Shown: positions 8,141-24,000, numbered from the stretch's first letter. The stretch: 24,000 bases of DNA from Wolbachia endosymbiont of Penenirmus auritus (GCA_029784575.1 JAJEUB010000001.1:29699-53698); one strand, 5' to 3'. Numbers and translations are program-made. Notes: generated by a model not told the origin, from the sequence alone.

Positions 8141-8158
8141 TTTTTCAATAAAAAAGTG
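8141..8158. repeat. direct repeat flanking the TA cassette (downstream copy)
   Basis: TTTTTCAATAAAAAAGTG here versus TTTTTCAATAAGAAAAGTG at 8721-8739 (one extra G). The two copies bracket the toxin-antitoxin pair. Confidence 0.6.
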
Positions 8159-8167
8159 AAAATATGT

Positions 8168-8458
8168 TTAGTGTATATTAAGTATCTTTTTAGCCTTCTC
8201 GTAAATGGTCCCTCTATGTCCTACTGTAACTATGGTTACTTCATATTTTGAAGTGTTTACATCATATAGAACACGGTAATCACCAACCCTCAGTCCTTTA
8301 TACCCTTTAAGGCTATGGTCCAACGTTTTACCAAGATTAATAGGGTCAACCGTAAGCCGCTCGTTTATTGCTTTTATAATCCTTTTCCTTACTGTTTTCG
8401 GAAGACTTGGAAGATCTTTTTCGAGAACATTGTCTAGGTAGATAATAGTGTATCCCAA
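8168..8458 (-). CDS. type II toxin, RelE/ParE family
   Basis: 96 aa. ...KRIIKAINERLTVDP...LKGYKGLRVGDYRVLYDVN...VTIVTVGHRGTIY is the classic RelE/ParE signature. TTG start overlaps the antitoxin 3' end by 25 nt. Confidence 0.85.
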   Translation of the reverse strand: MGYTIIYLDNVLEKDLPSLPKTVRKRIIKAINERLTVDPINLGKTLDHSLKGYKGLRVGDYRVLYDVNTSKYEVTIVTVGHRGTIYEKAKKILNIH

Positions 8459-8670
8459 TCTACATCCTCACTTTTAGTCTTTTTTGCGCCTTCAATATCA
8501 TACTCATCAGCAACTGCAGATAATAGAATATCTTCCTCTTCAAGCTCAATTGCTTCTCTGATTAGCCTTTCTGCTAATTCTTGAACAGACTGCTTAGTAA
8601 GTTCAGCGAGTTCAGCAAGTTGATGTGAAGTTTCTCTGCTAAGAGCTATGCTAGTTCCCAAGTTTGCCAT
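8434..8670 (-). CDS. ribbon-helix-helix type antitoxin
   Basis: Start taken at ATG 8670 (MANLGTSIALSRETSHQLAELAELTKQSVQELAERLIREAI), giving a beta-strand plus two helices, then an acidic C-terminal tail. Directly upstream of and overlapping the toxin. Confidence 0.75.
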   Translation of the reverse strand: MANLGTSIALSRETSHQLAELAELTKQSVQELAERLIREAIELEEEDILLSAVADEYDIEGAKKTKSEDVDWDTLLST

Positions 8671-8699
8671 ATACTTTACCAAAATTTACCACCGTAACT

Positions 8700-8728
8700 A
8701 TTGTATAGCGTCTTTCTAAGTTTTTCAA
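8700..8728 (-). promoter_or_regulatory. sigma70-like promoter of the toxin-antitoxin pair
   Basis: Minus strand has TTGAAA (8728-8723), a 17-nt spacer, then TACAAT (8705-8700), about 30 nt upstream of the antitoxin ATG. Confidence 0.5.
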
Positions 8729-8739
8729 TAAGAAAAGTG
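8721..8739. repeat. direct repeat flanking the TA cassette (upstream copy, contains the -35 box)
   Basis: See the 8141-8158 copy. Confidence 0.6.
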
Positions 8740-8790
8740 TCCAATATACACACGCTATCCCTTACATTTTAACATTTTTATTTAATTTTG

Positions 8791-9297
8791 TCAAATCCCT
8801 AAAATTGCTTGTAATTTAGCCATCTGATCGACTCCGTTAATCTTGCGAATCATATTTTCAGCATCGATTTCTATTAGCTCATTTCCACCTATGGTAAGTT
8901 TGTAATAATGAGCATCAACTGTACACTTCAGCGTTGCTTTTTCCGCTGGCTTCCAACTGCCAAAATCTAGCTCTTTAAATATTCCCCTAAGGTTGATAAT
9001 TACTCCTTCAATCTCATTGCTGCCACTACCTTGTATTCCACCCCTTAGTGTCAAAGAAACCGAATTTCCATCAATCAAGCCAAAGAGTCGAAAGAGCTCT
9101 GAATCATATTCTGCAAACGTAAAATCAGCTTCAAGTTTTTCCATTCCCATATCTATGCTGACTGGAATATCCATACCGCCAGCTCTGTATTCTTCTGTTT
9201 TGATGGTAAGCTTTGGCAGAGTGATTTCGTCTATTTTTCCTGCATAACCTCGGCCATCTACGAATACGTTGAAATTCTTTAAAATTTTTGGTAACAT
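8791..9297 (-). CDS. FII: major tail tube protein (P2 FII-like)
   Basis: 168 aa. MLPKILKNFNVFVDGRGYAGKIDEITLPKLTIKTEEYRAGGMD closely parallels the P2 FII N-terminus. Confidence 0.9.
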   Translation of the reverse strand: MLPKILKNFNVFVDGRGYAGKIDEITLPKLTIKTEEYRAGGMDIPVSIDMGMEKLEADFTFAEYDSELFRLFGLIDGNSVSLTLRGGIQGSGSNEIEGVIINLRGIFKELDFGSWKPAEKATLKCTVDAHYYKLTIGGNELIEIDAENMIRKINGVDQMAKLQAILGI

Positions 9298-9344
9298 TTT
9301 TTCTCCTGTATTTGCTGGGTTTTGTGGGTGCTTAGAAAGTTTTT

Positions 9345-10547
9345 CTAAAGTATTTCACTGTTAACTAAATGCGAACGGAAGGTAATCTTTTCCGCTGGAT
9401 ATGGTGGCGTAAACTCAAAGTCAAAATACATTTTGCCGTTTGCAATATTTGCCGGTGTATTTAACTCTGATGTCGCATAACATCTTCCACTGATTATTGC
9501 TCCTTGAGCTTTTAAATTAGCCAGATAGGAATTCACACTCTCAATTACATCATCTATGTAAGTTTTGGTAATATTTCGATCAACTGCCCATAAATGAGCC
9601 CTGAGCAGGCTATCATTGATTAAATCAGCCGTTCTCCTCACCGATAGAAAAGCCCATCTTTCATCGTTTGAACATGTTCTATTTCCCCAGAGTCTGTAGC
9701 CGTTTTGATGAATTATCGTCGTTACTTCATTTTCATTGAGATAATTTGCTCGAGAGCTTGTATCACCTAGCGTAAAATCAATAGGTCGGCTTGTTCCTAT
9801 AATACCATTTATTTCTTTATTTGATGGGGATTGCCAAAATCCTTCCTCACTATCTATTTTTGCTATTAAACCAGCTACAAATGGACTAGGTGGTACAGTT
9901 TTTTCTTTTCCATCACTGAATATTTTCACCCAAGGATCTACAACGTAAACTCTTGAACTACCTACACTTTTCCTCCATTTTATTGCTTCTTCATCGTTGG
10001 TATTTGGTCCATCGGCAACTACTATTGCTCTTAGTTTTTCCGCTATTACAATTAACTTTGCAATTACTGGGTTTTGTACTATACTGTTGCTACTGCTCTC
10101 ATCTGCGGGTAACTGATGAGTAAAATGAGGAGCTATTAGTATTCTTGGTGCAACATGAGCCACACTCTCGCTACTTAAGAATGCTTGTATGCCCTCATAT
10201 TCTCCTGTTTCTTCATCAACTCCGCCAATGACGTTTGCAGTTGTTTCTTCTTCTTTTAATTTTAAATCGCTGTTTTCACTTTCCTCAACTCGGATAACTA
10301 CTACTGTTGCACCTATTTGGGAAAATATTCCATTTACTGAAGGGGGAAGAGTTCCACTTCTCCCAAGCTTTGCCGCTTCTTTTAAGCTTCCTGCTATTAA
10401 TACTGGCTTATTTAGTGGAAATTTTTGCTTGTCAGCTTCAGGTGCAGTACCAATTACTCCTATTACTGATGATTTGGCTGTACGTATTGCTCGTGATCCT
10501 GAGGTAACTTCTATAACATTTACCCCATGTAGAAATTGTTCTGTCAT
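9345..10547 (-). CDS. FI: contractile tail sheath protein (P2 FI-like)
   Basis: 400 aa. FLHGVNVIEVTSGSRAIRTAKSSVIGVIGTAPEADKQKFPLNKPVLIAG parallels the P2 FI N-terminus. Sheath-tube gene order. Confidence 0.9.
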   Translation of the reverse strand: MTEQFLHGVNVIEVTSGSRAIRTAKSSVIGVIGTAPEADKQKFPLNKPVLIAGSLKEAAKLGRSGTLPPSVNGIFSQIGATVVVIRVEESENSDLKLKEEETTANVIGGVDEETGEYEGIQAFLSSESVAHVAPRILIAPHFTHQLPADESSSNSIVQNPVIAKLIVIAEKLRAIVVADGPNTNDEEAIKWRKSVGSSRVYVVDPWVKIFSDGKEKTVPPSPFVAGLIAKIDSEEGFWQSPSNKEINGIIGTSRPIDFTLGDTSSRANYLNENEVTTIIHQNGYRLWGNRTCSNDERWAFLSVRRTADLINDSLLRAHLWAVDRNITKTYIDDVIESVNSYLANLKAQGAIISGRCYATSELNTPANIANGKMYFDFEFTPPYPAEKITFRSHLVNSEIL

Positions 10548-10592
10548 GATGATTGGTCGATTAGAGAATTTTGTTTGCTACGTGAGTAGCGT

Positions 10593-11162
10593 TTATAAGC
10601 TTGTTAGAGAGTCTCTTACTTGTTCTTTAAAGTTGTTAAGAAAACTCTGTAATTCTTCTTGGTCCTTGATTTCCTTAATTTTTTTCTTGGCTAAATCTTC
10701 CAGTTCTTCACATTTGATTATGGCTTTTACTGCTTTTTGTGCCTTTTCTTGGATCATTTGTGCCATTTCTACTACTGAAATCCCTCTCACTCTTGCCAGT
10801 GGCTCTATAATTGCTGCATCTTTTTCATCTATAGATTCTGGTGCTGCTAAAATACTCTCTGCGGCTTCCGCTTGTATCGCATACGACCTAGCTTTTTGAT
10901 GAGAATATCCTGCGTATTTGTGAGTATAGTTATCATAATAAGTGCGAAGACTAGAAAATGCAGAAAGTTTCGCATTTTGCAGTAATTCCAGCTCAATATC
11001 TTCTTTACTCCTTTCAACAATTTTTCCTCCTTCAGTTAAACGATAACTCTTTTGCCAGTCAAAATTCTTTGGTGCTTCGTACCAGTCTCCACCTTCCGGT
11101 TTATTTTCAACCACTATCACTTCTATTTGTTTGTTATTCTCAAATCTTATGTAATTTGGCAT
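10593..11162 (-). CDS. hypothetical protein, possibly tail-fibre assembly chaperone
   Basis: 189 aa with a coiled-coil acidic C-terminus. The only functional argument is its position directly after the fibre gene. Confidence 0.6.
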   Translation of the reverse strand: MPNYIRFENNKQIEVIVVENKPEGGDWYEAPKNFDWQKSYRLTEGGKIVERSKEDIELELLQNAKLSAFSSLRTYYDNYTHKYAGYSHQKARSYAIQAEAAESILAAPESIDEKDAAIIEPLARVRGISVVEMAQMIQEKAQKAVKAIIKCEELEDLAKKKIKEIKDQEELQSFLNNFKEQVRDSLTSL

Positions 11163-11173
11163 AAATCCTTTCC

Positions 11174-12643
11174 TTATTTGGCAGTGCAGATGTTAAAAAC
11201 AACATTGCCTACTGAAGATCCAGTACCACTCACCTGAACGCCTCGCAAAGCAACTCCAGAACTGACGGTTGTTGTACCACTGTGTCTAGCTATATAAATA
11301 ATCTTATTTCCTGTAAGCAACGAATTCACACTAAAATCTGTGTCATTATCATCATAGCAACCCACTGGAAGATAAATTGTTGCGCTACCTCTACCACTTT
11401 CTCTAGTATCTGTTCCATTTCCCACTGTTATGCTATATTCTCTTCTAAATAGTGATGGAAAAGCATCTACCACGCTTACTACTGTTGACCGGTAATTTTG
11501 AATATTTGCTTCAATTGCTTTACATGCTGCCTCTGACTTAATAATCATGTGTAATATTTTACCATTGCTTACCATTGCTCTTACGGCTATTGATGAAGCT
11601 GCCATTATGGTTATTGCAGATGCCGAAGCTATTATAGTTTTCATCATTTCTTCTGAACTTGCTAATACATCGATGGCGGTTGTATGAGCTACGATATTTA
11701 GTGCAACACTGCTTTTTATTAATTCCTGTATTGCCTTTGGACTTCTAATTAATTTACTTAATGCTGAAGTGTGGCCTGTTATATTCAGCACAGCATTTGC
11801 ATTACTCAGCATTTTACTAAATTTTCTACGATTTTCGGTATTGTTTAGCCAGGTTTCTAGGTTGTTATTGTTTATTGTATTTAATAATATTTCTGGATCA
11901 CTAATAATCTCAAAAGTATTTTTTAATTGATCATCTCGAGTCTTTACCTCACTTACAATGGATGTTTTTAATTGATTATCCCAAGTTTTTACTTCATTTG
12001 TAAGGGATGTTTTCAATTGCTCATCTCGAGTTTTTATCTCCTTCATAATCGATGAACCATCTGGCACATCATTCACAGCACGAAAATCTTCTACTAAACC
12101 TTTTAGACCATCTTTATGAGTATTGCTGACACTGTTTATTGCCGCGATGTTTGCATTCTTTCTTGTATCAAGTAGCGATACATATGAATCTGATGATGCT
12201 TTTAAAGTATCCAAGGTGTTAGTTTTTAGCGTATTGATTTCATTTACAGACTCTGTCTTTGCTGTAGTTATTGCTGATATTGAATTTTCCTTATTGCTGT
12301 TTATTTCATTCAAGTGTAATCTTGCAGCGCTCAGAAGTTCTTTCAGCTTACCATCTGTCATCTGTACAATTTCAGATACTGAACTTTTGTCAACTATTGA
12401 TTCCAGTGCTTTAGCAAGATATGCTAATTGATCAGGAGTACTACTTACTGCTAAATCTTTAAGCCTTTTCTGTATTGCATCAATTACCTCTTTTACTTCA
12501 GTCATCTGTTCAACGCTGAAAGTAGCTTTTTTATCTATTATCGATTCTAATGCCTTAGCAAGGTAAGCTAATTGATCAGGCGTGCTACTTGCCGCTAAGT
12601 CTTTAATCCTTTGGTGCAGTGCATTTATTGCTTCCATGCTCAT
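11174..12643 (-). CDS. tail fibre-like protein with internal tandem repeats
   Basis: 489 aa. Repeat-rich helical N-terminal two thirds and a beta-rich C-terminal domain (YSITVGNGTDTRESGRGSATIYLPVGCYDDNDTDF...). Lies between structural genes and the sheath. Confidence 0.7.
   Translation of the reverse strand: MSMEAINALHQRIKDLAASSTPDQLAYLAKALESIIDKKATFSVEQMTEVKEVIDAIQKRLKDLAVSSTPDQLAYLAKALESIVDKSSVSEIVQMTDGKLKELLSAARLHLNEINSNKENSISAITTAKTESVNEINTLKTNTLDTLKASSDSYVSLLDTRKNANIAAINSVSNTHKDGLKGLVEDFRAVNDVPDGSSIMKEIKTRDEQLKTSLTNEVKTWDNQLKTSIVSEVKTRDDQLKNTFEIISDPEILLNTINNNNLETWLNNTENRRKFSKMLSNANAVLNITGHTSALSKLIRSPKAIQELIKSSVALNIVAHTTAIDVLASSEEMMKTIIASASAITIMAASSIAVRAMVSNGKILHMIIKSEAACKAIEANIQNYRSTVVSVVDAFPSLFRREYSITVGNGTDTRESGRGSATIYLPVGCYDDNDTDFSVNSLLTGNKIIYIARHSGTTTVSSGVALRGVQVSGTGSSVGNVVFNICTAK
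11900..12034 (-). repeat. 3 x 45-nt (15-aa) tandem repeat inside the fibre gene
   Basis: KTRDEQLKTSLTNEV / KTWDNQLKTSIVSEV / KTRDDQLKNTFEIIS. Confidence 0.9.
12347..12634 (-). repeat. 2 x 144-nt (48-aa) tandem repeat inside the fibre gene
   Basis: EAINALHQRIKDLAASSTPDQLAYLAKALESIIDKKATFSVEQMTEVK / EVIDAIQKRLKDLAVSSTPDQLAYLAKALESIVDKSSVSEIVQMTDGK. The DNA motif ttagcaag recurs at offset 144. Confidence 0.9.
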
Positions 12644-12840
12644 TTATTGCCCCAAAAATTCAAGAAGGTTTCAAAATTAAATCTTTCAAATTCTTCTTTA
12701 AGATTTTTATGTTTATTTTCTCCATTAGTCATATCTTCATCTACTTTTTCTATAGCTCTTCGAATACGTACTACATCCTCTGCAGCGATGTTCTCTGGAT
12801 GCGGCAAAGGATATCCACGACTTGTTTCATCATTTGGCAT
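12640..12840 (-). CDS. small fibre-module protein
   Basis: 66 aa. ATGA stop/start overlap with the fibre gene. Contains GYPLPHPENIAAEDVVRIRRAIEKVD. Confidence 0.6.
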   Translation of the reverse strand: MPNDETSRGYPLPHPENIAAEDVVRIRRAIEKVDEDMTNGENKHKNLKEEFERFNFETFLNFWGNK

Positions 12841-12850
12841 TCTTTTTGAC

Positions 12851-14050
12851 CTATGTGATAGTTACTCTTAAATTTCTCACCTTTGGACGATAAACAACTG
12901 TCCCACTCAAAACTAATTTTACCCTTGTCTCACTAGCATTAAAGTTTGTTAGTACATGCGTTCTTTCTACCCAATTTTCTCCAATAGGTTTTCCTGTGGT
13001 TAAATTTACTAATTGCCATTTTTCTCCCCCTTCCACGTTTTTCTCTACATAAGTTTTAACGTCCGCAGTACCAGGTGTTAGCGCATCATAGATAATTGTT
13101 ATTTTAGTGTTGGAACCGGCTGTAATACTCCTTGTGACATAATCTCCAGACTCTGAAAGATTCCCTAAAACTAGCTGCAGACCAGGATAAAGTACCGGAC
13201 TTCTCTTTTCCCCTCCTTTTAGGTTTGCTTGCACTGTTACCTCTCCAGAGAGTCTTTCACGCAATGCTAACGGCAAATTATCAGACAGAAAATTTTCTTT
13301 TCCTTCCTTATCGGTTAAAATAAATTCTACATTGGTATCAAACGCTACTTTTTCAACATTTGTCAAAACTATTAAATCTGATACGTTATCTGCTGTAACT
13401 TTGCCCAGATTAAAAACGTGAAAAGTTTCTGTAAATTTTGCAGCTAGTAGTCGAAACGTAAGGTCAAAGTTTTGATGCGCAGTCCAAGTGCTTGCATTGC
13501 TCGATGAGAGTAATACTCCTACTTGATAGGGCTGACTCGTTACCCAACGACTATTTACTGCATCATATTTGCCAAGCTCTGCTACTTTTACTGCTGTGTC
13601 TGCATCATCGGTAAGTAATACTATTGCATACTCTTGCCCTGCATGGCAAAATACTGGCGACCAAGTTATACGCGTTGCTGTGCCATTTATATTAATATTT
13701 TCAGGGTTAATATAACTTTCAGCAATTACAATCTGAGAGGGCATGCCAACTGCTGTTTCTCGTATTTGCACAACAACACGTTTTTTGCCTTTATTTGTAA
13801 ACCATAACTCTATACCTCCTATGTGTCTACTTTCATTCAGTGTAAATGTCTGTGCTAATGGATCAACTCGTCTAGCTGCAATTACTCTTCTTCTTTCTTC
13901 TATGGTAATTGTTTTTTTACCAGTATACGTTGTTTCTCCATAGCTTCCCTTATCCCCGTAAAATTGCACTAATTTCGTTCCTGCTGGGATTCTTGGCGGT
14001 ATTTTTATTTTTCCACTTATTTGTCCTTGATTATTTGCTATTTTTTCCAC
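12851..14050 (-). CDS. virion structural protein (host-recognition module), family not asserted
   Basis: 399 aa, beta-rich, motif RRVDPLAQTF. Tightly packed in the structural operon. Confidence 0.7.
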   Translation of the reverse strand: MEKIANNQGQISGKIKIPPRIPAGTKLVQFYGDKGSYGETTYTGKKTITIEERRRVIAARRVDPLAQTFTLNESRHIGGIELWFTNKGKKRVVVQIRETAVGMPSQIVIAESYINPENININGTATRITWSPVFCHAGQEYAIVLLTDDADTAVKVAELGKYDAVNSRWVTSQPYQVGVLLSSSNASTWTAHQNFDLTFRLLAAKFTETFHVFNLGKVTADNVSDLIVLTNVEKVAFDTNVEFILTDKEGKENFLSDNLPLALRERLSGEVTVQANLKGGEKRSPVLYPGLQLVLGNLSESGDYVTRSITAGSNTKITIIYDALTPGTADVKTYVEKNVEGGEKWQLVNLTTGKPIGENWVERTHVLTNFNASETRVKLVLSGTVVYRPKVRNLRVTIT

Positions 14051-14062
14051 TTTTTTTGCCCC

Positions 14063-16015
14063 TCATGCTACAGGTTGGATGGTGATGCCGTCGAATTTTA
14101 TCTCTTTAAGTTTTTCATGAGCTGCAAAGCCTTCAATTTCAAAGTTTTGTACTGCTTCTCTCATAAATTCAGCTTCGTATGACCTACTTGACAGAAGCTC
14201 TGTTTCTCTAGTATTAAATTCCCGGGTTACTGGACTTTTCCAAATTGTAGATACTTCTGTCCAGTGGTCGATGTTCATATTAAGAGTCACTTTTGCCGGT
14301 ACTGGATCAAAAGCTTGATACGGATTGATCTTTTCACTTTTAGTCTGCAAAAGCTGTTCCAATACCGGCTCAAGTTCATACGGCAACAAATAAGGTTTTT
14401 TGCCCTTCTCAGCATCAATAATTTCCACGTCTATCGGCAATATCAGTTCCTTATTTACTATTGCTGCAGACTGAACAATTCCTTGATCACGCATATCATC
14501 ATCAAAGAAGGGATCAACAAATACTCCTTTTTTCGTGGTTGGCTCTCTCGAATTTGCATCATTACGTAGACGTTCCTCTGCAACCAGCGCATAAAGATCA
14601 TTTATGCCCCTTTTCATTGCTTCAAGTTCATTCATCGGCACTGCATGGATAGCATTGTTCACTACTTTTACCTTTTCCCCGTTTTTCCACGTTTGACGAA
14701 TGTAACAGAGTAAAAGTTGTCCGCTAGGCGCTTTTGGCATCGATGGCTTCCAAGGATGTGCTATACCTTTTATTCTCCTCACCACCCCTTTTGCATCTAT
14801 GGTGATTAAATCATAGCGAGGCATTTTCCAAGTGTAATCAACTAGTACTAAACTACCATCAACCGCACCTTTGATTTTACAACCTTCTTCACTTACATTC
14901 TCAGGGCTTATATGAGTGCGAGAGCGGTAGGTTATTTGATAACTACTTCCTGGTGCTGGTTCTCTTCCTGGTAATGACCAATCAACATTTCCGCTACTTA
15001 GCTTATAATCTGTACCGTTTTCATAAATAACATCTCCTTGTTTGATCTGAATAATTTCAAGTATTGCAGAGTCAGGTATAGGGTCTATAGCTCCAGAATA
15101 TGAACCATGGGTCATGGTAATAGTCTTTTGGACAGTTATATCTACCCTTTTAATTTCGCGGACTGGAAAGTCATGAACTTTAAGCTCCATTACTTTTTGG
15201 CTATTTGGCTGAAAAGTATGGGATTCTGATGCAACTGTCTTTATGTCTGGATCTTCATCAAAATAAGCTCGAATACTGTGGGATAATTCTATTTCATAGC
15301 CATCAACACGAGCTTTACCTCCATTAACCACAAATACCTGTTTTTTTGCCCCTCTTTCCCCTCCTTCGCCTTTTTCTTCTTCTGTCTGCAAAAACATTAC
15401 TTCTAGGCCACTTACAACGTAGGAACCATTTGCCTCTTTATCGTAACGAGCAAGAGCTGTGGTGACAATATTTGCTTGGGGTGGCGGTGAATGTTCTATT
15501 AATACCCCATTTTCAATATTGTAAATTGGATAAAATTCCCCATCAGTGGTGGAAAAACGTGGAAAAACACCTTCTGCTTGATATCCCCAAACGGTGGAAA
15601 CTTTAAGTCTTGCTGCCCCTACTTCTTGGTAATTGCGTGTACCAACTGCAGGATCACGAAGATTTTCATCCTCTAGTTCTGTAATGGTAGATTCTACGTA
15701 ATAAACACCTATGCGAACTGTAGTATTCAGTGGAATAGTAAACCTTTTCCCCTCTACTTTTCTCACCGCTCCACGAAGATAGATTTTTCCCGATTCAAGT
15801 GTAACTTCGCCGGTTTCCGCATCTATAATACAATTGCTTCCCGCTATAACATCACCATCGCGGAATATTGCATCACCTATGCCTTTAAGCTTAGAAAGAG
15901 CATACTCTTGGGTTTCATTTAATTCTGCCGATTGCAGACCTCTTCCTGCTAGGAATAAGCTTTTTTCATATTCTTTGTCAGGATCAAAACGATTATAATA
16001 GCCGTTTAGTGTCAT
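14063..16015 (-). CDS. large virion structural protein (possibly DUF4815-like)
   Basis: 650 aa. The N-terminus YYNRFDPDKEYEKSLFLAGRGLQSAELNETQ reminds me of the DUF4815 phage structural family, from memory only. Confidence 0.7.
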   Translation of the reverse strand: MTLNGYYNRFDPDKEYEKSLFLAGRGLQSAELNETQEYALSKLKGIGDAIFRDGDVIAGSNCIIDAETGEVTLESGKIYLRGAVRKVEGKRFTIPLNTTVRIGVYYVESTITELEDENLRDPAVGTRNYQEVGAARLKVSTVWGYQAEGVFPRFSTTDGEFYPIYNIENGVLIEHSPPPQANIVTTALARYDKEANGSYVVSGLEVMFLQTEEEKGEGGERGAKKQVFVVNGGKARVDGYEIELSHSIRAYFDEDPDIKTVASESHTFQPNSQKVMELKVHDFPVREIKRVDITVQKTITMTHGSYSGAIDPIPDSAILEIIQIKQGDVIYENGTDYKLSSGNVDWSLPGREPAPGSSYQITYRSRTHISPENVSEEGCKIKGAVDGSLVLVDYTWKMPRYDLITIDAKGVVRRIKGIAHPWKPSMPKAPSGQLLLCYIRQTWKNGEKVKVVNNAIHAVPMNELEAMKRGINDLYALVAEERLRNDANSREPTTKKGVFVDPFFDDDMRDQGIVQSAAIVNKELILPIDVEIIDAEKGKKPYLLPYELEPVLEQLLQTKSEKINPYQAFDPVPAKVTLNMNIDHWTEVSTIWKSPVTREFNTRETELLSSRSYEAEFMREAVQNFEIEGFAAHEKLKEIKFDGITIQPVA

Positions 16016-16034
16016 TTTATTTTTTAAACGATTG

Positions 16035-16715
16035 TCAAAAAGTTACTACAAATGAAAAAGTTTCCCGGGTTGCTGCAGTTCTGATAAGCGGTACAGTGTG
16101 TTCAAGCACCAACAAAATTCCAGGATTTTCCACATCTTTTGGTTCAAAATATCTCTGCCCAGGGGGTAAATTTTTCTTCAACTTGGTACCAACCATAACT
16201 CCTAGCTCTCTGATCACTTGATTTGCTGCGTCCGTGAAATCGAAAGTAAATGTGAGGAAAAGGTTGTTGGTTGGTACATTTGATGGTTTAAACCGACCAG
16301 AAGGAGTAATTAGTTCGCCATTTTCATCACCACTGCAGAAGAGGACTTCATCAGCAACACGTCTGCCAAGTTCATTGAACAGTTTTTCCGACGTAATTGG
16401 TTCTGGTGGTGTATCTTGAGTATACTCTATAGTAACACCATTTGCAATAGAACTGTTTTCTGTTCGCTGAATAACACCAGTACTACTATCGACTGTATAG
16501 TCTACGCTTGACTGATAAGACGTTTGTCCTGTAAAAACTTTTACGTCTTTGACCGGGTAGTGATCTAGGGTTATTTTGCCATCAGCGGAAAAAATTTTTT
16601 CAACTGTGTGACTACTTCCCCAATTTGCATCACCACTTCCCCAAGCAAGATGTATCGGTTGTTCTTTTATGCTCGCTGCTATTGCTGCTCTTCCCGATTG
16701 GGTGAGAATTGACAT
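16035..16715 (-). CDS. tail-collar fibre-like protein (first gene of the structural operon)
   Basis: SILTQSGRAAIAASIKEQPIHLAWGSGDANWG resembles the N-terminal tail-collar fibre domain (P2 gpH type). Start moved to ATG 16715 (AGGAG upstream) because the listed TTG at 16751 lies inside the conserved promoter-like motif. Confidence 0.65.
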   Translation of the reverse strand: MSILTQSGRAAIAASIKEQPIHLAWGSGDANWGSSHTVEKIFSADGKITLDHYPVKDVKVFTGQTSYQSSVDYTVDSSTGVIQRTENSSIANGVTIEYTQDTPPEPITSEKLFNELGRRVADEVLFCSGDENGELITPSGRFKPSNVPTNNLFLTFTFDFTDAANQVIRELGVMVGTKLKKNLPPGQRYFEPKDVENPGILLVLEHTVPLIRTAATRETFSFVVTF

Positions 16716-16742
16716 TTGAATGTTTGACTCCTGTATATATAT

Positions 16743-16770
16743 ATTCACCAAAATTACAAAAACTGTTCAG
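16743..16770 (-). promoter_or_regulatory. conserved 28-nt motif copy A (CTGAACAG-N13-GGTGAAT), upstream of the structural operon
   Basis: Minus strand AAAAAAACTGAACAGTTTTTGTAATTTTGGTGAATATATATATACAGGAG. Ends 27 nt before ATG 16715. Confidence 0.55.
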
Positions 16771-16863
16771 TTTTTTTGCAGGAAAGTGCTTCTTTTTTTG
16801 CAATAAATTTTTGTTGACTAATTTTTAATCTACTTTAGACATAATATATTTACTTTTAAGCAT

Positions 16864-18114
16864 ATGCTAAATCTTCACCCTAGCAGGGACTTTTGGGAAA
16901 ATAATCTAGAAATGCCTATATCTTCTTTGCTCAAGGACTTCCAAAATCCAATTTTACGTGAAAGTTGGCTGAATTCCCTTTCTGGTAGGCAATTAAACGT
17001 TATTTTTAACCATTGTTTTCAGGATAAGCAAAATGGACAATTGTTTAAAGATTGTGAGCTTTGGAAATGCGATGACCTCTCAACTCAACAAAAGCGTAAA
17101 ATGCTTATCAACATTTCCGAATCTTTGTTTCATTATTATTTAATCAATTGTTTTAGTCGGGCAAAATTAGAAACAACTGTAGTTGAAGTGGCACAATCTG
17201 TGTTGGCTCAAGATCTTCTCAAGTCATTTCTGCTGCAAAATAACAAATATGATAGAAAATCTTTGCTGTTCATTCTTTTTGTAACTAATCATAACTTACT
17301 GAAACAAATTTTCTGCTTTAACCAAGTACACAAAAAAGGATTTTTACCTTTTGTATTAAAGAATCCTCCAAGACAAAAGACTACTTCATTTAAGGATTTT
17401 TTATCAGAAGATATAATACAGACAATATTAAACCAACATGACCTATCTGAAAATGATAGTTTTGAAAGTCAGTTTCAAGAACTTTTCTACTGCCAAGATA
17501 GTATTTACTTATTTATACGTCGTGCTAGTAAAGATGAAGATTTATTAATGAGTTCAAATAAAGTTATACATGGCTACAAACCTAGCAGAATTATTATTGA
17601 ATTTGCTTTAAATGCTAATCAAGCAAATTTATCTATTCAAAACTTTGATCAAGGACTAAAAATAGCAAATAGGATAGCTAGCTGTTATTTTGAACGTGAA
17701 TGCTCATTTATTAACATGCATAGCCGAAATACAGCAGCACAAGTAAGTACTTTTTTGCATGGGTGCATAAAACAATATGTATCAGATATTCACTTATTTG
17801 AAATGAAATTTGGTTCACCTAAATCTAAAACTAGTCTTACGTTAAACACAGATAACATTGAAGAGTGGTTACAAAAAATAGAGCCTTCTATCGGTAGTGT
17901 ACTACATGATGTTTCTCTTATCCAACATATAAAGGTATTGTTCAAAAATAAAAAAGTTACCCTATCCTTCCAGCAAGATGCAAATTATATAGCAGTTGAT
18001 TACTCAGAACATGTCCTCAATAAAAAAGAACGGGATGATTTTAAGTCTTTAATTAGAGATAGTTATGGAATTAACGTCTTGTCAAGAACTCTCTCAAGAC
18101 AGAGAAATAATTAA
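16864..18114 (+). CDS. hypothetical protein (cassette gene A)
   Basis: 416-aa ORF on the opposite strand to all neighbours. No motif I can assign. Confidence 0.8.
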   Translation: MLNLHPSRDFWENNLEMPISSLLKDFQNPILRESWLNSLSGRQLNVIFNHCFQDKQNGQLFKDCELWKCDDLSTQQKRKMLINISESLFHYYLINCFSRAKLETTVVEVAQSVLAQDLLKSFLLQNNKYDRKSLLFILFVTNHNLLKQIFCFNQVHKKGFLPFVLKNPPRQKTTSFKDFLSEDIIQTILNQHDLSENDSFESQFQELFYCQDSIYLFIRRASKDEDLLMSSNKVIHGYKPSRIIIEFALNANQANLSIQNFDQGLKIANRIASCYFERECSFINMHSRNTAAQVSTFLHGCIKQYVSDIHLFEMKFGSPKSKTSLTLNTDNIEEWLQKIEPSIGSVLHDVSLIQHIKVLFKNKKVTLSFQQDANYIAVDYSEHVLNKKERDDFKSLIRDSYGINVLSRTLSRQRNN

Positions 18115-19186
18115 TACTATTTTAGTAAATAGGTCCTGGGTAAGTCCTAACGAAGATTACATAAGAGCTGCGGAGTATTTAAGTCGGCTTGGCTTTATTA
18201 AACTTGAAAAGTATTACTTTGTTATCTGTGCTAATGATTTAGACCTTGATTTCCCAAATGTACAAAATCCTTATTGCAAAAATGAGATTATCATTCCTTA
18301 TGATTTCAATGAAAACTTTGATGATAATCTAGCTTGCGAGGATTGCGGTCGTGATGTTTTTCCTGATACTTACAAAAAACAACGTTATCTTGTGCTTTCA
18401 ATTAAGTTAGATCCAGAAAGAATAATAAATTGGTTTGAAAACATGTTGATCGGACTTATTTGGGAGAAGGCAACAGAAGGAATATATTATATAAGCTTTA
18501 AAAGTAAGATAGTAACCGTTATCATACCAGCTTTATCCATTGATAAATCATATTTAACCATAGACAGATTAAGAACCAATGCTACTGTTCTTATAACTCT
18601 TGGAAAGGTAGATCTTAAGCTATTATTAGACCTGTATACTGTTCCTATGGCTGATTTAATTTGTGGATATCGGGCTTTAAATGAAATGCTAAGTAAGGCA
18701 GTTGAAAAAGGAGTACCAAAGCTATTACCTAATGTTTCTTTTCAGGCGTTAAGTTACTATCCTTATGTTCCACTACAGAAAACAGTTCATCAGGAGAAAA
18801 GAATATTAAGGTTAAAAATTATAGATAATACTGTTTATGTTAATGATGTTGAAGTTATAAGCAAACAGGCAACTTCAAGTATCCGCATTTTTAGAGTATT
18901 ACTTAAACAATTTTTACGTGATTTTGAAGCGGCTGAAGAATATAAATTTCTTAGTGTAATTGAAATAGCAGACAGTTTAGGTATTGAGGATCCAGAACAA
19001 CAAGTACGTAGACCGCTTAATAGAATGCAAAAAGCAATAGCTGAAAAGCTAGCTAGCACCTTGGGACTAAATATTAAACGCGATGACGTGATACAAGCGT
19101 GTAACTGGTCAGGTATAACATGTCAAGAATACGGCTACCGACTTAACCCATCTACCATTAACCTAGCTAGCTCACAACCCCTCTAA
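18065..19186 (+). CDS. hypothetical protein with Cys cluster and C-terminal wHTH-like region (cassette gene B)
   Basis: 373-aa ORF overlapping gene A by 50 nt. Its frame is closed by TAA at 18050-18052, so ATG 18065 is the first possible start. Cys55/71/91/94 (..LACEDCG..). The C-terminal IRIFRVLLKQFLRDF...LSVIEIADSLGI...VRRPLNRMQKAIAEKL looks like a winged helix. Confidence 0.8.
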   Translation: MELTSCQELSQDREIINTILVNRSWVSPNEDYIRAAEYLSRLGFIKLEKYYFVICANDLDLDFPNVQNPYCKNEIIIPYDFNENFDDNLACEDCGRDVFPDTYKKQRYLVLSIKLDPERIINWFENMLIGLIWEKATEGIYYISFKSKIVTVIIPALSIDKSYLTIDRLRTNATVLITLGKVDLKLLLDLYTVPMADLICGYRALNEMLSKAVEKGVPKLLPNVSFQALSYYPYVPLQKTVHQEKRILRLKIIDNTVYVNDVEVISKQATSSIRIFRVLLKQFLRDFEAAEEYKFLSVIEIADSLGIEDPEQQVRRPLNRMQKAIAEKLASTLGLNIKRDDVIQACNWSGITCQEYGYRLNPSTINLASSQPL

Positions 19187-19629
19187 TGTTTTCTCGTCAA
19201 GTATACTGGCAACTCCATAACTTTAACACGCAATAGCGTTGGTACTTCTTCTTCGCGGAATTTAATATAACCTTCAGTAGCTAAAACATTAATATGTTTA
19301 CGAATAGAATGATGACCCTTAAGACCAAACTTATCTTCAAAAAAATAGCAAAATTGGGTTTTAGTAAAAAAGCGTTCCTTACTCGCTTCTTCATCAATCA
19401 GCTGTAGAATTGTATCGTATTCTCTTTTCCAGAACTTCTTAGCGGCTCTTTTATGTTTAGTAAGTAATTCTTTAATTAGGTTTATGTCACTTATAATTGA
19501 AGTTAAAAGCTTGGCTATGTTTTTATCTTTAGAGACCTGTTGTTCAACGTTATTAGTATCATCAGGAGATAAAGAAGACAGGCACTCTTTAAGATTGTTG
19601 TGTTTTATTTCTTTTTTAGATTTGTTCAT
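19183..19629 (-). CDS. winged-helix DNA-binding protein (last gene of replication operon)
   Basis: 148 aa. FTKTQFCYFFEDKFGLKGHHSIRKHINVLATEGYIKF is HTH plus wing-like. Its stop codon overlaps the stop of cassette gene B. Confidence 0.65.
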   Translation of the reverse strand: MNKSKKEIKHNNLKECLSSLSPDDTNNVEQQVSKDKNIAKLLTSIISDINLIKELLTKHKRAAKKFWKREYDTILQLIDEEASKERFFTKTQFCYFFEDKFGLKGHHSIRKHINVLATEGYIKFREEEVPTLLRVKVMELPVYLTRKH

Positions 19630-19667
19630 ATATATCCTATAAAAATTATTTTAAATAAACGTGGTAT

Positions 19668-20156
19668 TTAGAATGGGATCCAACCATCCCTCTGAGGCTC
19701 GTTTGGGGTAATGACCGTATCAATTCTATTCCTGTTTCCGTACTTACTATCAGCCTCAATTCCCACTTTTGCCGTAAACTCTAGTCCATTTAAATCTGCA
19801 ATGGAGTTGAGCTTTCTGGCAAGTACTGCTTTTTCTGAAGTGTCATGTGGATGAATATTGCGTGCCGACTCCAAAATACTTCGAATCATAGAACGACCCA
19901 TTTCTCCCCAGACATCTTCTCTTTCAACGTTTGCTTTACCACTTTTAATACCAATGACTTGATAAATCTTACGTTTAGCATATGGCCCTTCAACCACGGT
20001 AAATTCAGCGTTTAAATAGATGCTGCCAGTAGCATAGCTTTTAGTGTACCAATCTTCATAACCACCAGGTTTGATGGCCATTTTGGCTTTTACTATCGTA
20101 TCTTTCGGTATTAAGTTACTTTGTGATTTTGCAGTATTAAAATCAGTGTGTAGCAT
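19668..20156 (-). CDS. DUF669-like phage protein (putative ssDNA-binding partner of the AAA_24 ATPase)
   Basis: 162 aa. LIPKDTIVKAKMAIKPGGYEDWYTKSYATGSIYLNAEFTVVEGPYAKRKIY fits the DUF669 pattern (from memory). AGGAGA SD upstream. Same operon as an AAA_24-type ATPase. Confidence 0.55.
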   Translation of the reverse strand: MLHTDFNTAKSQSNLIPKDTIVKAKMAIKPGGYEDWYTKSYATGSIYLNAEFTVVEGPYAKRKIYQVIGIKSGKANVEREDVWGEMGRSMIRSILESARNIHPHDTSEKAVLARKLNSIADLNGLEFTAKVGIEADSKYGNRNRIDTVITPNEPQRDGWIPF

Positions 20157-20353
20157 AAGTATCTCCTAAGTTTTAAAGTAAAAAAAAATTAGCTGTTCCA
20201 GTGGTCCACAATTTGATGGCCATTTTGGCTTTTACTATCGTATCTTTCGGTATTAAGTTACTTTGTGATTTTGCAGTATTAAAATCAGTGTGTAGCATAA
20301 GTATCTCCTAAGTTTTAAAGTAAAAAAAAATTAGCTGTTCCAGTGGTCCACAA
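20070..20353. repeat. perfect 142-bp tandem duplication (20070-20211 = 20212-20353)
   Basis: Base-by-base identical by my reading. Each unit holds the last 23 nt of the RepA-like gene, the intergenic SD region and the first 87 nt of the DUF669-like gene. Confidence 0.9.
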
Positions 20354-21140
20354 ACTGCCAGTAGCCATCTATCTTATCGACAAACTTGTTTGGCACACGT
20401 TCACCATTACGCAATTCAAAGACTATTTGACGAGCAGTACTTTCTTCGTCCTGACTAAACATCACCATGCCAGTACTGTAAAATCCCCTTAAAGACCCAG
20501 CACCACTTAAGCCTTGAAATGGATCTTCCTCTAACATCTTTTTGGATAGTTTTTTCGTATGATGGGTCAAGATTATTCCAGCATCTGGATTGATAACATT
20601 TCTCAGTCTTTCAAGCGTTCTTTGCAAGAAAAATAGCATAGCACTGTTGTCGTTTTCACTGCCATACTCACCTGGGTTAAAAATGTTACGCAGAGGATCA
20701 ATCGCAATAATGTCGGGTTTAAAACGCTCTTTAACGGTGTTTTTAATTTCATCTATTTCTTCACTACTGAAAGATAATTGCACTCTTGGCGTGATAATTA
20801 AGTTATTGGCAGCTATATCTAAAAGCTCTTGATCAAGTTGAAGCTGTTGCAAACGTTCTTTCATATAGTCATACTCGATTTCGGTTTGCAGGTAGAAAAT
20901 TTTCATGGGCTTACTTGGAACCATACCAAGGAATGAAACACCGGCAGCCATGTGTACTAACTACGAAATTAGAAAATCACTTTTACCAATTTTAGGTGGG
21001 CCACCAAATACCAATAGGCCTCTTTTCGTCAAAATTCTCGGTGAGATTATATCCTCTGGTATTGGCGTTTGGTCATTTAAATATTCCTTCATGCTGAAAA
21101 AAGGAATTTTTCGACTAATAGTAAAAAAGCTTTGTTCCAT
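20331..21140 (-). pseudogene. RepA-like (AAA_25-type) ATPase/helicase paralogue interrupted by an in-frame TAG
   Basis: ATG 21140 (GGAGAA SD) gives MEQSFF...PIPEDIISPRILTKRGLLVFGGPPKIGKSDFLIS, then TAG (20961-20963), then LVHMAAGVSFLGM... continuing in frame as the listed 206-aa ORF. The paralogue at 22737+ has TGG (Trp) at that position (ISWLIHMAAG). Confidence 0.8.
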
Positions 21141-21160
21141 ATTGTTCTCCGATTTTTAAA

Positions 21161-21970
21161 TTAAGCAGCAGTAGCCAAAACTTTGGCTTTAATTTTTGTG
21201 AGCAATTTACCCAGATGCGGTTCTTCAACCATATCAAGGCAGCCACTTCGATCTTTAGCCGGGTATCCCCAAGAATTAATGGTCTGACAGACAAAAGAAC
21301 GTACTTCTGTACCATCATCTTTCTTGATGCCAACCATGCTAATTACTTCATCAACAATCCCGGGAATTTCACTGGCAGTTTTGGCCCCTTCGCATTGAGG
21401 TAGCCATGTTGAACGATTGAGATCATCAAGATACTGACCTAGTGTGCCAACTATGATGATGTCTTTATCCGGAATATGTTGAAACTGATTAAGCCAAGCC
21501 ATCATCTCTTGAGCAAGCATGCCGTAAGCAGCTCTTTTATCTTCTCTCCCTGATCGATCAGAAAAAGCTTCAGGTTGCATTCTTGCCCAGGAAAGACATA
21601 AACGTGATGCAACAGTTATACTGTCGATAAAGATGTAACGGTACTTAGAAACCTCAGAGAGAAGATCTTTATGCTTGCCAGATACATGCTCATAGTGTCT
21701 TTGGCTATATGCTTGATCAGATTTCAGTGCTGGATTTGGCCCACCAATAAGACAAGCAATATCTCTTGCCTCATTCCAAGTGCGCATCTTGATTGAATCT
21801 CCTTTCCAGTCTTGGACGGCAAGAAGTCCTGCTTCAAAATCAAGACAGAGTGTTTTCGACTCCTCAAGAGTTTTTAGCAGACTGGTCTTGCCGATTCCAT
21901 AAGGTCCAAAGATTACTATCTTCACACCTGTTACCATTTTTACTCTTTCTTCGCTGTTCATTATTTTCAT
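21161..21970 (-). CDS. AAA_24 / Sak4-like RecA-fold ATPase
   Basis: Walker A VKIVIFGPYGIGKTSL and Walker B YRYIFIDSIT. Start moved to ATG 21970 (AGGGGG SD) because the listed TTG at 22000 lies within motif copy B. Confidence 0.8.
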   Translation of the reverse strand: MKIMNSEERVKMVTGVKIVIFGPYGIGKTSLLKTLEESKTLCLDFEAGLLAVQDWKGDSIKMRTWNEARDIACLIGGPNPALKSDQAYSQRHYEHVSGKHKDLLSEVSKYRYIFIDSITVASRLCLSWARMQPEAFSDRSGREDKRAAYGMLAQEMMAWLNQFQHIPDKDIIIVGTLGQYLDDLNRSTWLPQCEGAKTASEIPGIVDEVISMVGIKKDDGTEVRSFVCQTINSWGYPAKDRSGCLDMVEEPHLGKLLTKIKAKVLATAA

Positions 21971-21991
21971 ATTTTTACCCCCTATATATAA

Positions 21992-22019
21992 ATTCACCAA
22001 ACTTCAGAAAACTGTTCAG
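21992..22019 (-). promoter_or_regulatory. conserved 28-nt motif copy B, upstream of the replication operon and overlapping the sigma-gene stop codon
   Basis: Minus strand AAAAAAAACTGAACAGTTTTCTGAAGTTTGGTGAATTTATATATAGGGGG. The TGA of the sigma gene is inside CTGAACAG. Ends 21 nt before ATG 21970. Confidence 0.55.
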
Positions 22020-22519
22020 TTTTTTTTGTGTTTTTTTCCGTAAATAGGTGCAAATTTAGGTCGCACCCTCTTGATAATGTTGTGTAAAGTAGTTCGTGAC
22101 ATATTGTTCATCTCTGCAACTTCAGCAATGCTTTTGTGTTTTAGCTGTTCAAATAAAATTCGCTGTTTCTTTGGTAGCTTTGAAATAATTTGCTCAACGT
22201 CAACACGTAGTATCGCTTCATCTTCAAAGCAATAACTTTCCTGTTGCATGTAGTTTTCAAGGTTGGGAGTATTACGTGAGTGGTCACGGACTAGATTGTT
22301 GATATGATTTTTAATAACTTGTTTAGTAAAAGTCGAAAGACTGCCCTTAGTTTTATCGTATTGATCTAAACATGAAAAAAACTTACAGAAAAGGTCTTGC
22401 TCTATGTCTTCAATATCTTGATCAGCAAAGCATTTAAGTGACTTGTAATATCTTGCATAAAATTTTATTAAATTAGTAACTTTAGGGTCGATGCCTGAAT
22501 AAGAGTTTCGAGATTTCAT
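22016..22519 (-). CDS. sigma-70 family (ECF-like, regions 2 and 4) RNA polymerase sigma factor
   Basis: 167 aa. Region 2-like DIEDIEQDLFCKFFSCLDQYDKTKGSLSTFTKQVIKNHINNLVRDHSR. Region 4 HTH LPKKQRILFEQLKHKSIAEVAEMNNMSRTTLHNIIKRVR. Confidence 0.85.
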   Translation of the reverse strand: MKSRNSYSGIDPKVTNLIKFYARYYKSLKCFADQDIEDIEQDLFCKFFSCLDQYDKTKGSLSTFTKQVIKNHINNLVRDHSRNTPNLENYMQQESYCFEDEAILRVDVEQIISKLPKKQRILFEQLKHKSIAEVAEMNNMSRTTLHNIIKRVRPKFAPIYGKKHKKN

Positions 22520-22669
22520 ACCTTAATGAAAGACTTAAGAATGAAACTTTTTTGGTAAGCATTGTAGGACATGGAAAAAATGCTTCAGACAACTGCAAAG
22601 TTTTTACCCCGGAAAAACCTGGGTTTTTTGTCAACCTTCAGACATTAAAAATTTCGATCAGACAATAAA

Positions 22670-22697
22670 CTGAACAGTTTTTTGAAATTTGGTGAAT
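22670..22697 (+). promoter_or_regulatory. conserved 28-nt motif copy C, upstream of the primase-helicase gene
   Basis: Plus strand CAATAAACTGAACAGTTTTTTGAAATTTGGTGAATGTATTAGTAAGGAA. Ends 39 nt before ATG 22737. Confidence 0.55.
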
Positions 22698-22736: not shown

Positions 22737-24000
22737 ATGGATGATGTTGCAAAAATTAAAGCACAACTATTATTAAACTTAAGGTCTTGTCTTTCTTATC
22801 TCTTTCCCAGAGGTACCTTCCATGGTGATGAATTTCGTATAGGTAATATTCAAGGCGAAAGAGGACAAAGTTTAAAAGTAGCATTAACTGGTGAAAGAGC
22901 TGGACTCTGGCAGGATTTTGCCACTGGAGAAAAAGGAGATGTTATTGCTATTTGGGCAGCTACACAAGGAAAAGATACAAGAAGGGATTTTCGTGAAGTA
23001 ATGGCTTCGATAAGTGAATGGCTCCAGTATGATAAAAAATGTCCAGAAGAAAAATACAGTGATAAAAAGTTTGATGAAATAGCTACGTATAGTTGGAATT
23101 ACTATGATGAAAATGGTCAGGTAGTAGTAAAAATGTACCGCTATGATCCTCCTGGTAGAAAAAAAGAATATAAGCCATTTGACGTAAAACGATCCAAATT
23201 TGCTGCACCAGAGGGTTTAAGACCACTATACAATATTCCAGGAATTTTAAAGTCTGATAAGGTTATTTTTGTAGAAGGAGAAAAATGTGCTGAAAGCTTA
23301 ATAGAACAAGGGATAACAGCTACAACTGCAATGTTTGGATCGAATGCATCTCCTGACAAAACGGACTGGTCGCACCTTAAAGGTAAACATATTATTATTT
23401 GGCCAGATAACGATGAAGCAGGAAACAAATATGCTAAAAATGCTGAAAAGAAGCTTTTGGAACTAGGAGTTGCATCACTGGTTACGCTCAGTATTCCACA
23501 AGATAAACCAAAAGGTTGGGATGCTGCTGATTGTACTGAGGACGTTGAAAAATTTTTAGCTTCAGCTACTCAAATTCACCATATAAAAAACATCATCTCA
23601 TTTCCTGCAAGACAATACTTCAACGATAAATCACCAATGCCAGAGGATATAATTGCTCCACGAGTTTTAACGCCGAGCGGTCTTTTAGTGTTTGCTGGAG
23701 CGCCTAAAGTAGGAAAAAGTGACTTTCTAATCTCATGGCTAATTCATATGGCAGCAGGAGTTCCATTTCTTGATATGGTACCAACAAGACCTTTAAGGAT
23801 TTTTTACCTTCAAACTGAAATTGGCTACCACTACATGCGTGAACGTATACAGCAACTTAAACTCGATGAAAAACTTCTTGAGATTGCTCTGGATAACTTG
23901 ATCATTACACCACAAACAAAGCTACTCTTAAATGATAACAGTATAGATGAAGTTCTTGATGAAATAAAAAAATCATTTGGTTCAAATGCTGTTGATGTTA
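22737..24000 (+). CDS. Toprim primase fused to RepA-like helicase/ATPase (3' end beyond window)
   Basis: Not in the ORF track (no stop in window). ATG 22737 follows an in-frame TAA and the frame is open to base 24000. Toprim motifs VIFVEGEKCAESL and IIIWPDNDEAGNKYA, then Walker A GLLVFAGAPKVGKSDF. Confidence 0.9.
   Translation, partial: MDDVAKIKAQLLLNLRSCLSYLFPRGTFHGDEFRIGNIQGERGQSLKVALTGERAGLWQDFATGEKGDVIAIWAATQGKDTRRDFREVMASISEWLQYDKKCPEEKYSDKKFDEIATYSWNYYDENGQVVVKMYRYDPPGRKKEYKPFDVKRSKFAAPEGLRPLYNIPGILKSDKVIFVEGEKCAESLIEQGITATTAMFGSNASPDKTDWSHLKGKHIIIWPDNDEAGNKYAKNAEKKLLELGVASLVTLSIPQDKPKGWDAADCTEDVEKFLASATQIHHIKNIISFPARQYFNDKSPMPEDIIAPRVLTPSGLLVFAGAPKVGKSDFLISWLIHMAAGVPFLDMVPTRPLRIFYLQTEIGYHYMRERIQQLKLDEKLLEIALDNLIITPQTKLLLNDNSIDEVLDEIKKSFGSNAVDV

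Follow-up and report, generated by a model that had tools for sequence, protein, structure and literature searches.

A repeated bipartite motif and an ECF-like sigma factor in a Wolbachia phage WO prophage: candidate promoters of the lytic-cycle operons

Sigma factors that are encoded by phages and act on promoters of their own represent a known strategy, with SPO1 and T4 among the examples. In phiEco32 and the Salmonella phage 7-11, the phage sigma factor serves its own middle and late promoters, which show the consensus TAATGTATA (PMC4331800). For phage WO, the temperate phage of Wolbachia, neither this strategy nor the motif reported here was found described in the literature. The WO sigma gene has been noted since 2011, its role being only guessed at, namely to bring the polymerase to the replication genes (PMC3173496); a 2020 review gives the targets of the small Wolbachia sigma factors as undetermined (PMC7397232), and a 2022 paper on WO genomics mentions neither the sigma factor nor promoters. 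This work concentrates on 24 kb of phage WO prophage DNA from the Wolbachia endosymbiont of the louse Penenirmus auritus (the whole of this stretch is called the window; its DNA is 80-84% identical to phage WO records). It harbors the gene of a small sigma factor resembling the extracytoplasmic function (ECF) type (22016-22519, minus strand) and three copies of a 28-nt motif, CTGAACAG-N13-GGTGAAT. With a probability of roughly 0.7, these copies are the promoters of the lytic-cycle operons of the phage, read by the host core polymerase together with the ECF-like sigma factor of the prophage.

The phages phiEco32 and 7-11 offer a close parallel, since in both a small, divergent phage sigma factor steers the core polymerase of the host to a short motif that recurs ahead of replication and structural operons (PMC4331800), as the WO factor is predicted to do. 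Their -10-type sequence TGTATA also resembles the WO heptamer together with the tract that follows it, (C/G)(T/G)TGTATATA, in several WO lineages. However, these phages are lytic and encode an anti-sigma factor to shut off the host, whereas WO is temperate and no anti-sigma gene adjoins its sigma gene; moreover, their promoters consist of a single 9-bp extended -10-like element, whereas the WO sites show a clear -35 box and a fixed 13-nt spacer. The RinA/ArpU proteins of temperate Gram-positive phages are likewise small phage proteins needed to switch on a late morphogenesis operon (PMC3152322). They act on a single promoter upstream of terS, whereas the WO protein possesses sigma-70 regions 2 and 4 and would serve three to five promoters, including those of replication genes; a Pfam scan of the WO protein for RinA/ArpU membership at E <=0.01 returned only sigma-70 and generic helix-turn-helix (HTH) families. 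The tail genes of WO are P2-like (gpU, gpX, gpD, sheath, tube). P2 switches on several late operons through one phage factor (Ogr/Delta), as is proposed here for WO. The zinc-finger activator Ogr recognizes a dyad around -55 of sigma-70 promoters, whereas the conserved elements of WO are located at -35 and -10 and the proposed factor belongs to the sigma family.

A pattern scan of the window yielded exactly three matches to the motif, all without mismatch: copy A at 16743-16770 (minus strand), copy B at 21992-22019 (minus strand), and copy C at 22670-22697 (plus strand). No further site with up to two mismatches is present in the window; dinucleotide-preserving shuffles give a chance expectation of 0.04, and none of 100 shuffles reached three. 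All copies are intergenic and aimed at a gene start, with the next ATG located 27 (copy A), 21 (copy B), and 39 nt (copy C) beyond the end of the motif, and each is accompanied by an A-rich tract upstream and a T-rich spacer. Copy A precedes the tail-fibre/sheath/tube/tape-measure operon, copy B the AAA24 (Sak4-like) replication operon, and copy C the primase-helicase gene, which is divergent from the sigma gene. The sigma open reading frame (ORF) ends with the TGA that copy B contains within CTGAACAG (22018-22016), which places this stop codon inside the putative -35 box. Two TTG-started ORFs (16035-16751 and 21161-22000) begin within the motif (TTG GTG AAT), the real starts being ATG 16715 and ATG 21970.

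All that could be checked in a preliminary description made from the sequence alone was borne out. It had placed the motif at the same three positions, with A-rich upstream tracts and similarity extending into the spacer, had put gene starts 21-39 nt downstream, had seen copy B overlap the sigma stop codon, and had dismissed the two TTG starts as the motif translated. The targets it had named, a structural operon, a replication operon, and a primase-helicase gene, correspond to the tail-fibre/tail operon, the AAA24 operon, and a Toprim-AAA_25 gene. Its statement that the motif is non-consensus for sigma-70 also agrees with the finding that none of the three sites passes a sigma-70 consensus scan. 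A scan of IMG/VR for the exact pattern returned 90 stretches (80 of them listed) with one match each, and was uninformative because this is about the chance yield for 15 specified bases in a collection that large.

Positional evidence comes from a 2025 Cappable-seq study of wMelPop-CLA and wAlbB, whose Tables S1-S3 give 50 nt upstream of each primary transcription start (PMC12558409). Four of these primary starts lie at orthologous copies of the motif, 9-13 nt after the heptamer. At wMel WD0590, the AAA24 gene, whose upstream site is orthologous to copy B, CGTACAT is followed by ATATATTT and an A at +1, so that transcription starts 9 nt after the heptamer; at wMel WD0593 (RuvC-like), CGTACAT is followed by 12 nt and a G at +1 (start 13 nt after the heptamer). 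wAlbB DEJ70_RS04885 is preceded by two tandem copies, the first with CTTGTAT, ATATATGT, and an A at +1 (9 nt), the second with CTTGTAT, 9 nt, and a C at +1 (10 nt). Since the motif search of that study reported only sigma-70-type boxes (PMC12558409), these sites went unnoticed there. The orthologous copies are real primary transcription start regions, that is, promoters. A distance of 9 nt puts the -35 box at -35 to -30 (GGACGA in WD0590) and the heptamer at -15 to -9, which in copy A corresponds to TGAACA at 16769-16764 and GGTGAAT at 16749-16743 (minus strand). The same geometry predicts starts at A16734 (copy A), A21983 (copy B), and A22706 (copy C), all of them A, with leaders of 19, 13, and 31 nt that contain Shine-Dalgarno sequences. 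The promoter reading TGAACA, 17 nt, GAATNT, as first proposed, fits the mapped positions in that the orthologous starts in wMel and wAlbB fall 7, 7, 8, and 11 nt after the -10 hexamer.

The sigma factor encoded between copies B and C comprises 167 amino acids (aa) and is assigned to phrog_1740 ('RNA polymerase sigma factor'); its gene lies within the WO prophage, flanked by the replication and primase genes. A protein annotated as a sigma-70 family factor in a metagenome-assembled genome of the Wolbachia endosymbiont of Penenirmus auritus (contig L098) matches it with 100% identity. The protein consists of regions 2 and 4 only, devoid of regions 1.1 and 3, and its length falls into the ECF range of about 160-200 aa. 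Pfam gives 36.7 bits for Sigma70_r2 (cut-off 24) and a borderline 24.8 bits for Sigma70_r4_2 (cut-off 25.7), and the NCBIfam model TIGR02937 gives 55.4 bits against a cut-off of 42.9; none of the NCBIfam ECF subfamily or equivalog models came near its cut-off. Compared with solved structures, a profile of 32 WO sigma factors matched ECF-type sigma factors only (sigma-H, AlgU, RpoE, SigW, SigE). An AlphaFold2 model, its alignment built from database proteins only (mean pLDDT 80.6), has seven helices, grouped into two bundles with a linker of low confidence (residues 84-97) between them, and the top Foldseek matches of this model are ECF sigma factors with probabilities of 0.97-1.0. On account of the two domains, the TIGR02937 score, and the ECF matches in sequence and fold, the factor is ECF-like in build, as the preliminary description had supposed.

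The cellular ECF factors of group 4 (E. coli sigma-E, B. subtilis SigW, M. tuberculosis SigH and SigL) share this sigma2 plus sigma4 build and provide the best sequence and fold matches of the WO factor. The ECF promoter pattern, an AAC-containing -35 box with a CGT-type -10 box, is seen only in part at the sites: the -35 box of the window, TGAACA, contains GAAC, and relatives carry -10 boxes with CGT (CGTGTAT or CGTACAT). In addition, GAAC-N17-TGAAT resembles the E. coli sigma-E promoter GGAACTT-N16-TCAAA. Unlike the cellular factors, the WO protein stays below the ECF subfamily cut-offs, has no co-encoded anti-sigma factor, and in the window is not preceded by a motif copy that would point to positive autoregulation; the -10 box of the window, GGTGAAT, is not of the CGT type; and the factor is carried by a phage, with phage modules as its predicted targets. 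No anti-sigma gene was found beside the sigma gene, the neighbors being the AAA24 ATPase (downstream) and the divergent primase-helicase (upstream), and the same holds for 10 related loci. As a side observation, the A-tract of copy B (22019-22045, minus strand) doubles as coding sequence for the lysine-rich C-terminus of the sigma factor (ending in GKKHKKN), and this overlap, with the TGA in the -35 box, also occurs in wStri and WOSoc. One and the same stretch is therefore constrained as a protein tail and as a promoter upstream element.

A scan of genome contigs with a single protein listed only the two wStri loci; with profile protein searches and contig look-ups, the sample grew to 14 WO-type prophage loci with sigma factors 33-82% identical to that of the window. 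All of them carry sites of the same bipartite build, 49 in total, in which a spacer separates a -35 box of 7 nt from a -10 heptamer, usually accompanied by an ATATA tract. The spacer measures 13 nt in 42 of the 49 sites, 14 nt in six, and 12 nt in one. An ATG-started ORF of at least 50 aa begins within 150 nt downstream on the same strand at 42 of 49 sites, at a median distance of about 28 nt. Placement is conserved as well: sites are found upstream of the tail-fibre gene, between the sigma and AAA24 genes, and before the primase or a RuvC-like/methylase/terminase module. An alignment shows that the position orthologous to copy A holds, in seven other WO lineages, each lineage's own version of the motif, and both boxes of copy C are kept in the wStri orthologue, where the flanks have diverged. 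wStri, the closest relative, has five copies within 20 kb; its two additional copies precede an ATPase/Bro-N pair and a RuvC-like/methylase block. The complete WOVitA1 genome and an 87-kb wMel record contain exactly three copies each, one per lytic module, and none in the eukaryotic association module or near cifA/cifB.

Of the 13 phages with several sites, nine use a single -10 heptamer in all copies. The heptamer reads GGTGAAT in all three copies of the window and in four of the five copies of wStri (the fifth being GGTGAAA), CGTGTAT in WOVitA1 and wCfeF, CGTACAT in wMel WO-B, CGGGTAT in wFol-1, GGTGTAT at the P0030 locus, TTTGTAT at P0033, and CTTGTAT at P0027. In wCfeT, three downstream promoters carry ATTGTAT and two more sites CTTGTAT and CTTATAT; WOVitA2 shows CTTGTAT near the sigma gene and three GGTGAAT-type sites elsewhere; Mesenet has CTTGATT in two copies and CTTGTAT in one; and wFol-2 has three heptamers (CTAGTAT, AATGTAT, AGTGAAT). 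Judged by the sequences, phage-specificity is clearest in this heptamer. Prophages residing in the same host differ in their boxes (WOVitA1 and WOVitA2 in wVitA, wFol-1 and wFol-2), so the determinant of specificity must lie in the phage genome rather than that of the host. Between lineages, the sigma factors are 33-44% identical. Their region-4 helix MNNxSRTT goes with a sigma-adjacent -35 box TGAACA and the helix (I/M)T(G/K)(I/V)(P/S)K(T/A)(T/S) with GGACGA, while the loop before region 2.3 changes with each -10 heptamer. Predictions of the -35 box made from the helix before the DNA was looked up came true for wCfeF (GGACGA) and for the P0027 site next to the sigma gene (TGAACAA); the remaining two P0027 promoters carry TGGACAT. 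A strict one-to-one relation between helix and -35 box was rejected, as P0027, WOVitA2, and Mesenet hold TGAACA together with TGGACA or TGGACGA alongside a single sigma factor.

From the comparisons above we strongly infer that the phage sigma factor would be the one reading the sites. In the proposed mechanism, its domain 4 would bind the -35 box TGAACA and its domain 2 the -10 region within GGTGAAT(AT), and transcription would begin about 9 nt after the heptamer, at the three A residues given above. Once made, the factor would direct the core polymerase to the three promoters and thereby activate replication operon, primase-helicase gene, and 16-kb tail operon jointly; the set would extend to the head-packaging module in relatives. 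Because the control region of the sigma gene is separate and free of the motif, switching on the sigma gene would fire all three targets at once. Copy B lies across the sigma stop codon and no terminator intervenes, so that both read-through transcription and sigma-dependent initiation would supply the AAA24 operon.

Several observations weigh against this assignment of the sites to the phage sigma factor. The Cappable-seq lists contain no start for the wMel tail-fibre copy or the wMel sigma gene, two wMel starts were detected in uninduced cell culture, and all mapped starts come from phages with motif versions other than that of the window. More than one heptamer occurs within WOVitA2, wFol-2, Mesenet, and wCfeT, and the covariation at -35 is loose, given the mixed boxes within the single phages P0027, WOVitA2, and Mesenet. 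Covariation as a whole is also confounded by shared descent, and any phage-encoded DNA-binding protein would covary likewise. Furthermore, the WOVitA2 record holds window-type (class A) sites, although its sigma factor is only 44% identical to that of the window. Finally, the -35 box of the window sites matches TTGACA at four of six positions, an AT-rich TATATA follows the heptamer, and TG precedes it, so that weak recognition by the housekeeping sigma factor of the host is possible. This last point leads to an alternative in which host RpoD reads the sites and the phage-specific positions form an overlapping site for another phage repressor or activator that gates all lytic operons. The activity of the wMel starts in uninduced culture would suit it, as would the WD0593 start, whose distance of 13 nt from the heptamer is compatible with a TATATT -10 box lying farther downstream. 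However, the window sites fail the sigma-70 consensus scan, and the conservation of both boxes together with a fixed 13-nt spacer exceeds the needs of a housekeeping promoter and is unlike a dimeric operator. The boxes are non-palindromic in other lineages, and no other DNA-binding gene was found in the conserved sigma-AAA24 neighborhood; in sum, the RpoD alternative is considered unlikely. A simpler operator had been raised in the preliminary description, in which an HTH repressor binds a near-palindrome (CTG-NN-CAG). It finds no support, as the palindrome is missing from the equivalent boxes of other lineages (TGGACGA, CGGACGA, TAGACAC, TCAAATA).

A heat-shock sigma factor (RpoH, sigma-32) would couple WO induction to temperature stress, and the Wolbachia heat-shock starts of groES, dnaK, grpE, and rpoH indeed show a CTTGAA-like -35 box followed by a GTATATAT-like -10 box, a superficial likeness to the phage sites. 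At 34 C, however, these heat-shock starts rise (log2 +1.4 to +1.7), whereas the two wMel phage starts fall, that of WD0590 throughout the time course (log2 -2.2 to -2.9) and that of WD0593 at 4 h and 24 h. Owing to this opposite response, RpoH was rejected as the reader of the sites and is a very improbable candidate, the boxes being, moreover, phage-specific within one host. Hardly any probability at all is left for the motif as something other than a promoter, be it a repeat that arose by chance or one that marks the boundary, or serves recombination, between phage modules. The copies do sit at module boundaries, where mosaic phages recombine, and the WOVitA2 and Mesenet loci mix motif versions, but primary starts are mapped just downstream of orthologous copies, and the strict orientation toward a gene start at short distances likewise argues against a boundary repeat; chance is excluded by the motif counts in the window, WOVitA1, and wMel.

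The control region of the sigma gene (22561-22664, minus strand) lacks the 28-nt motif and instead contains TGTCTGA direct repeats at 22658-22664, 22638-22644, and 22585-22591 as well as a TACAAT -10-like box at 22566-22561. The repeats sit at -145, -125, and -72 from the sigma ATG. Other WO lineages (contigs L091, L093, L094, L095, L099, L100, and L102) show three to four repeats at near-identical offsets with differing sequences (GTATTATT, GTCTTATTT, CGCAATTA), which looks like a lineage-specific operator array for the sigma gene. A terminator-like hairpin (CCCGG-AAAAAC-CTGGG, then TTTTTT; 22608-22633, plus strand) lies just upstream of copy C and antisense to this region, and overlaps a perfect TTGACA on the minus strand (22634-22629); as a part of the promoter system it was rejected, because it is not conserved in wStri. 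A wider proposal is tentative, and the odds are rather against it: the whole lytic programme of WO (replication, packaging/head, tail) would run from three to five promoters under one phage sigma factor, the sigma/promoter codes of the lineages would have grown apart, which would keep prophages that share one Wolbachia cell from cross-activating each other, and the sigma gene, under its own lineage-specific operator array, would form the lysogeny-lysis switch. If this holds, it would provide ready-made orthogonal expression parts for Wolbachia, which has resisted genetic manipulation.

The motif and its cognate factor would amount to the first promoter code for phage WO, whose transcriptional control is essentially uncharted. 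The cytoplasmic-incompatibility genes employed for mosquito control reside on this phage, which is also the foremost candidate for a vector with which to transform Wolbachia. A defined code would make the lytic switch testable, with the sigma factor as the likely master activator, would allow intact prophages to be told from decayed ones by a retained, matched sigma/promoter set, and would supply compact promoters plus a cognate activator for expression constructs. It should thus be useful to those working on Wolbachia and phage WO; to phage biologists it is a modest surprise, one more example of an established strategy.

Several relatives show particular arrangements. The WOVitA2 record HQ906663.1 (L095, 33413-36632) contains three window-type sites, TGAACAG-N13-GGTGAAT or GGTAAAT, about 24 kb from the gene of another type of sigma factor, next to which the promoter TGAACAA-N13-CTTGTAT is found; this means either that the sigma factor accepts the two -10 versions alike or that portions of two phages are combined in the record. 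wCfeT (L102/L106, CP051156.1, about 9227-10698) has two tandem sigma genes, the first of which is preceded by a family-type promoter, TTGAACAA-N13-CTTGTAT, and is the exception to the lack of a motif before the sigma's own gene. Its downstream operons carry TAGACAC-N13-ATTGTAT, duplicated in tandem, and the tandem genes may constitute a two-step sigma cascade. A WO-like prophage outside the genus Wolbachia, that of a Candidatus Mesenet endosymbiont (L105, OZ026454.1), shows the same sigma factor, gene order, and promoter build, with GTGAACAA-N13-CTTGATT present twice and TGGACAA-N13-CTTGTAT at the tail-fibre gene. The Andrena locus (P0038) is rich in insertion sequence elements, has an extended sigma ORF, and yielded no clean motif; the contig of P0039, a sigma factor with a helix of the wFol-2 kind, ends right after the sigma gene, which leaves no promoter to be read. 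In the cifB/cifA region of wMel (MN180251.1; L107, 21615-26966), a search allowing up to two mismatches found no motif of the wMel version near the large genes at the cifA/cifB position or elsewhere in the eukaryotic association module, and the large genes appear to lie outside the predicted sigma regulon.

With respect to the target modules of the window, the primase-helicase gene downstream of copy C (Toprim plus AAA_25; 22737-24000, plus strand) continues past the window end and encodes 685 aa in contig L098, which stems from the same organism and is 99.8% identical. The replication operon downstream of copy B (19183-21970, minus strand) comprises AAA24 (21161-21970), AAA_25 (20331-21140), and genes of unknown function at 19668-20156 and 19183-19629. 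Its AAA_25 gene contains an in-frame stop (W60 to stop), whereas L098 holds an intact ORF of 269 aa; a 142-bp tandem duplication at about 20070-20353, at the junction of AAA_25 with the next gene, is likewise missing from L098. Pseudogenisation, strain variation, or an assembly difference could account for these deviations. The opposite strand carries, where the replication module gives way to the tail-fibre module (16864-19186, plus strand), an overlapping pair of genes of unknown function (416 and 373 aa; phrog_21102 and phrog_25990) with no motif in front; wStri, wFol-2, Mesenet, and the Andrena and P0027 loci have this pair in the same place.

The structural operon downstream of copy A (187-16715, minus strand) begins with the tail-fibre-network protein BW3TFN (16035-16715), followed by DUF4815, sheath, tube, tape-measure, gpU, gpX, gpD-like, and ankyrin proteins, and contains no additional motif copy. 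It is broken up by group II intron sequence (Rfam; 5070-7611, minus strand), located just upstream of or overlapping the start of the tape-measure gene (5085). D1-D4 domains were detected at 7611-7377 and 5799-5566 and D5/6 domains at 5278-5180 and 5167-5070, with one reverse-transcriptase ORF (7182-5848) between the intron domains. This domain order suggests that an ORF-less intron is nested in a full intron.

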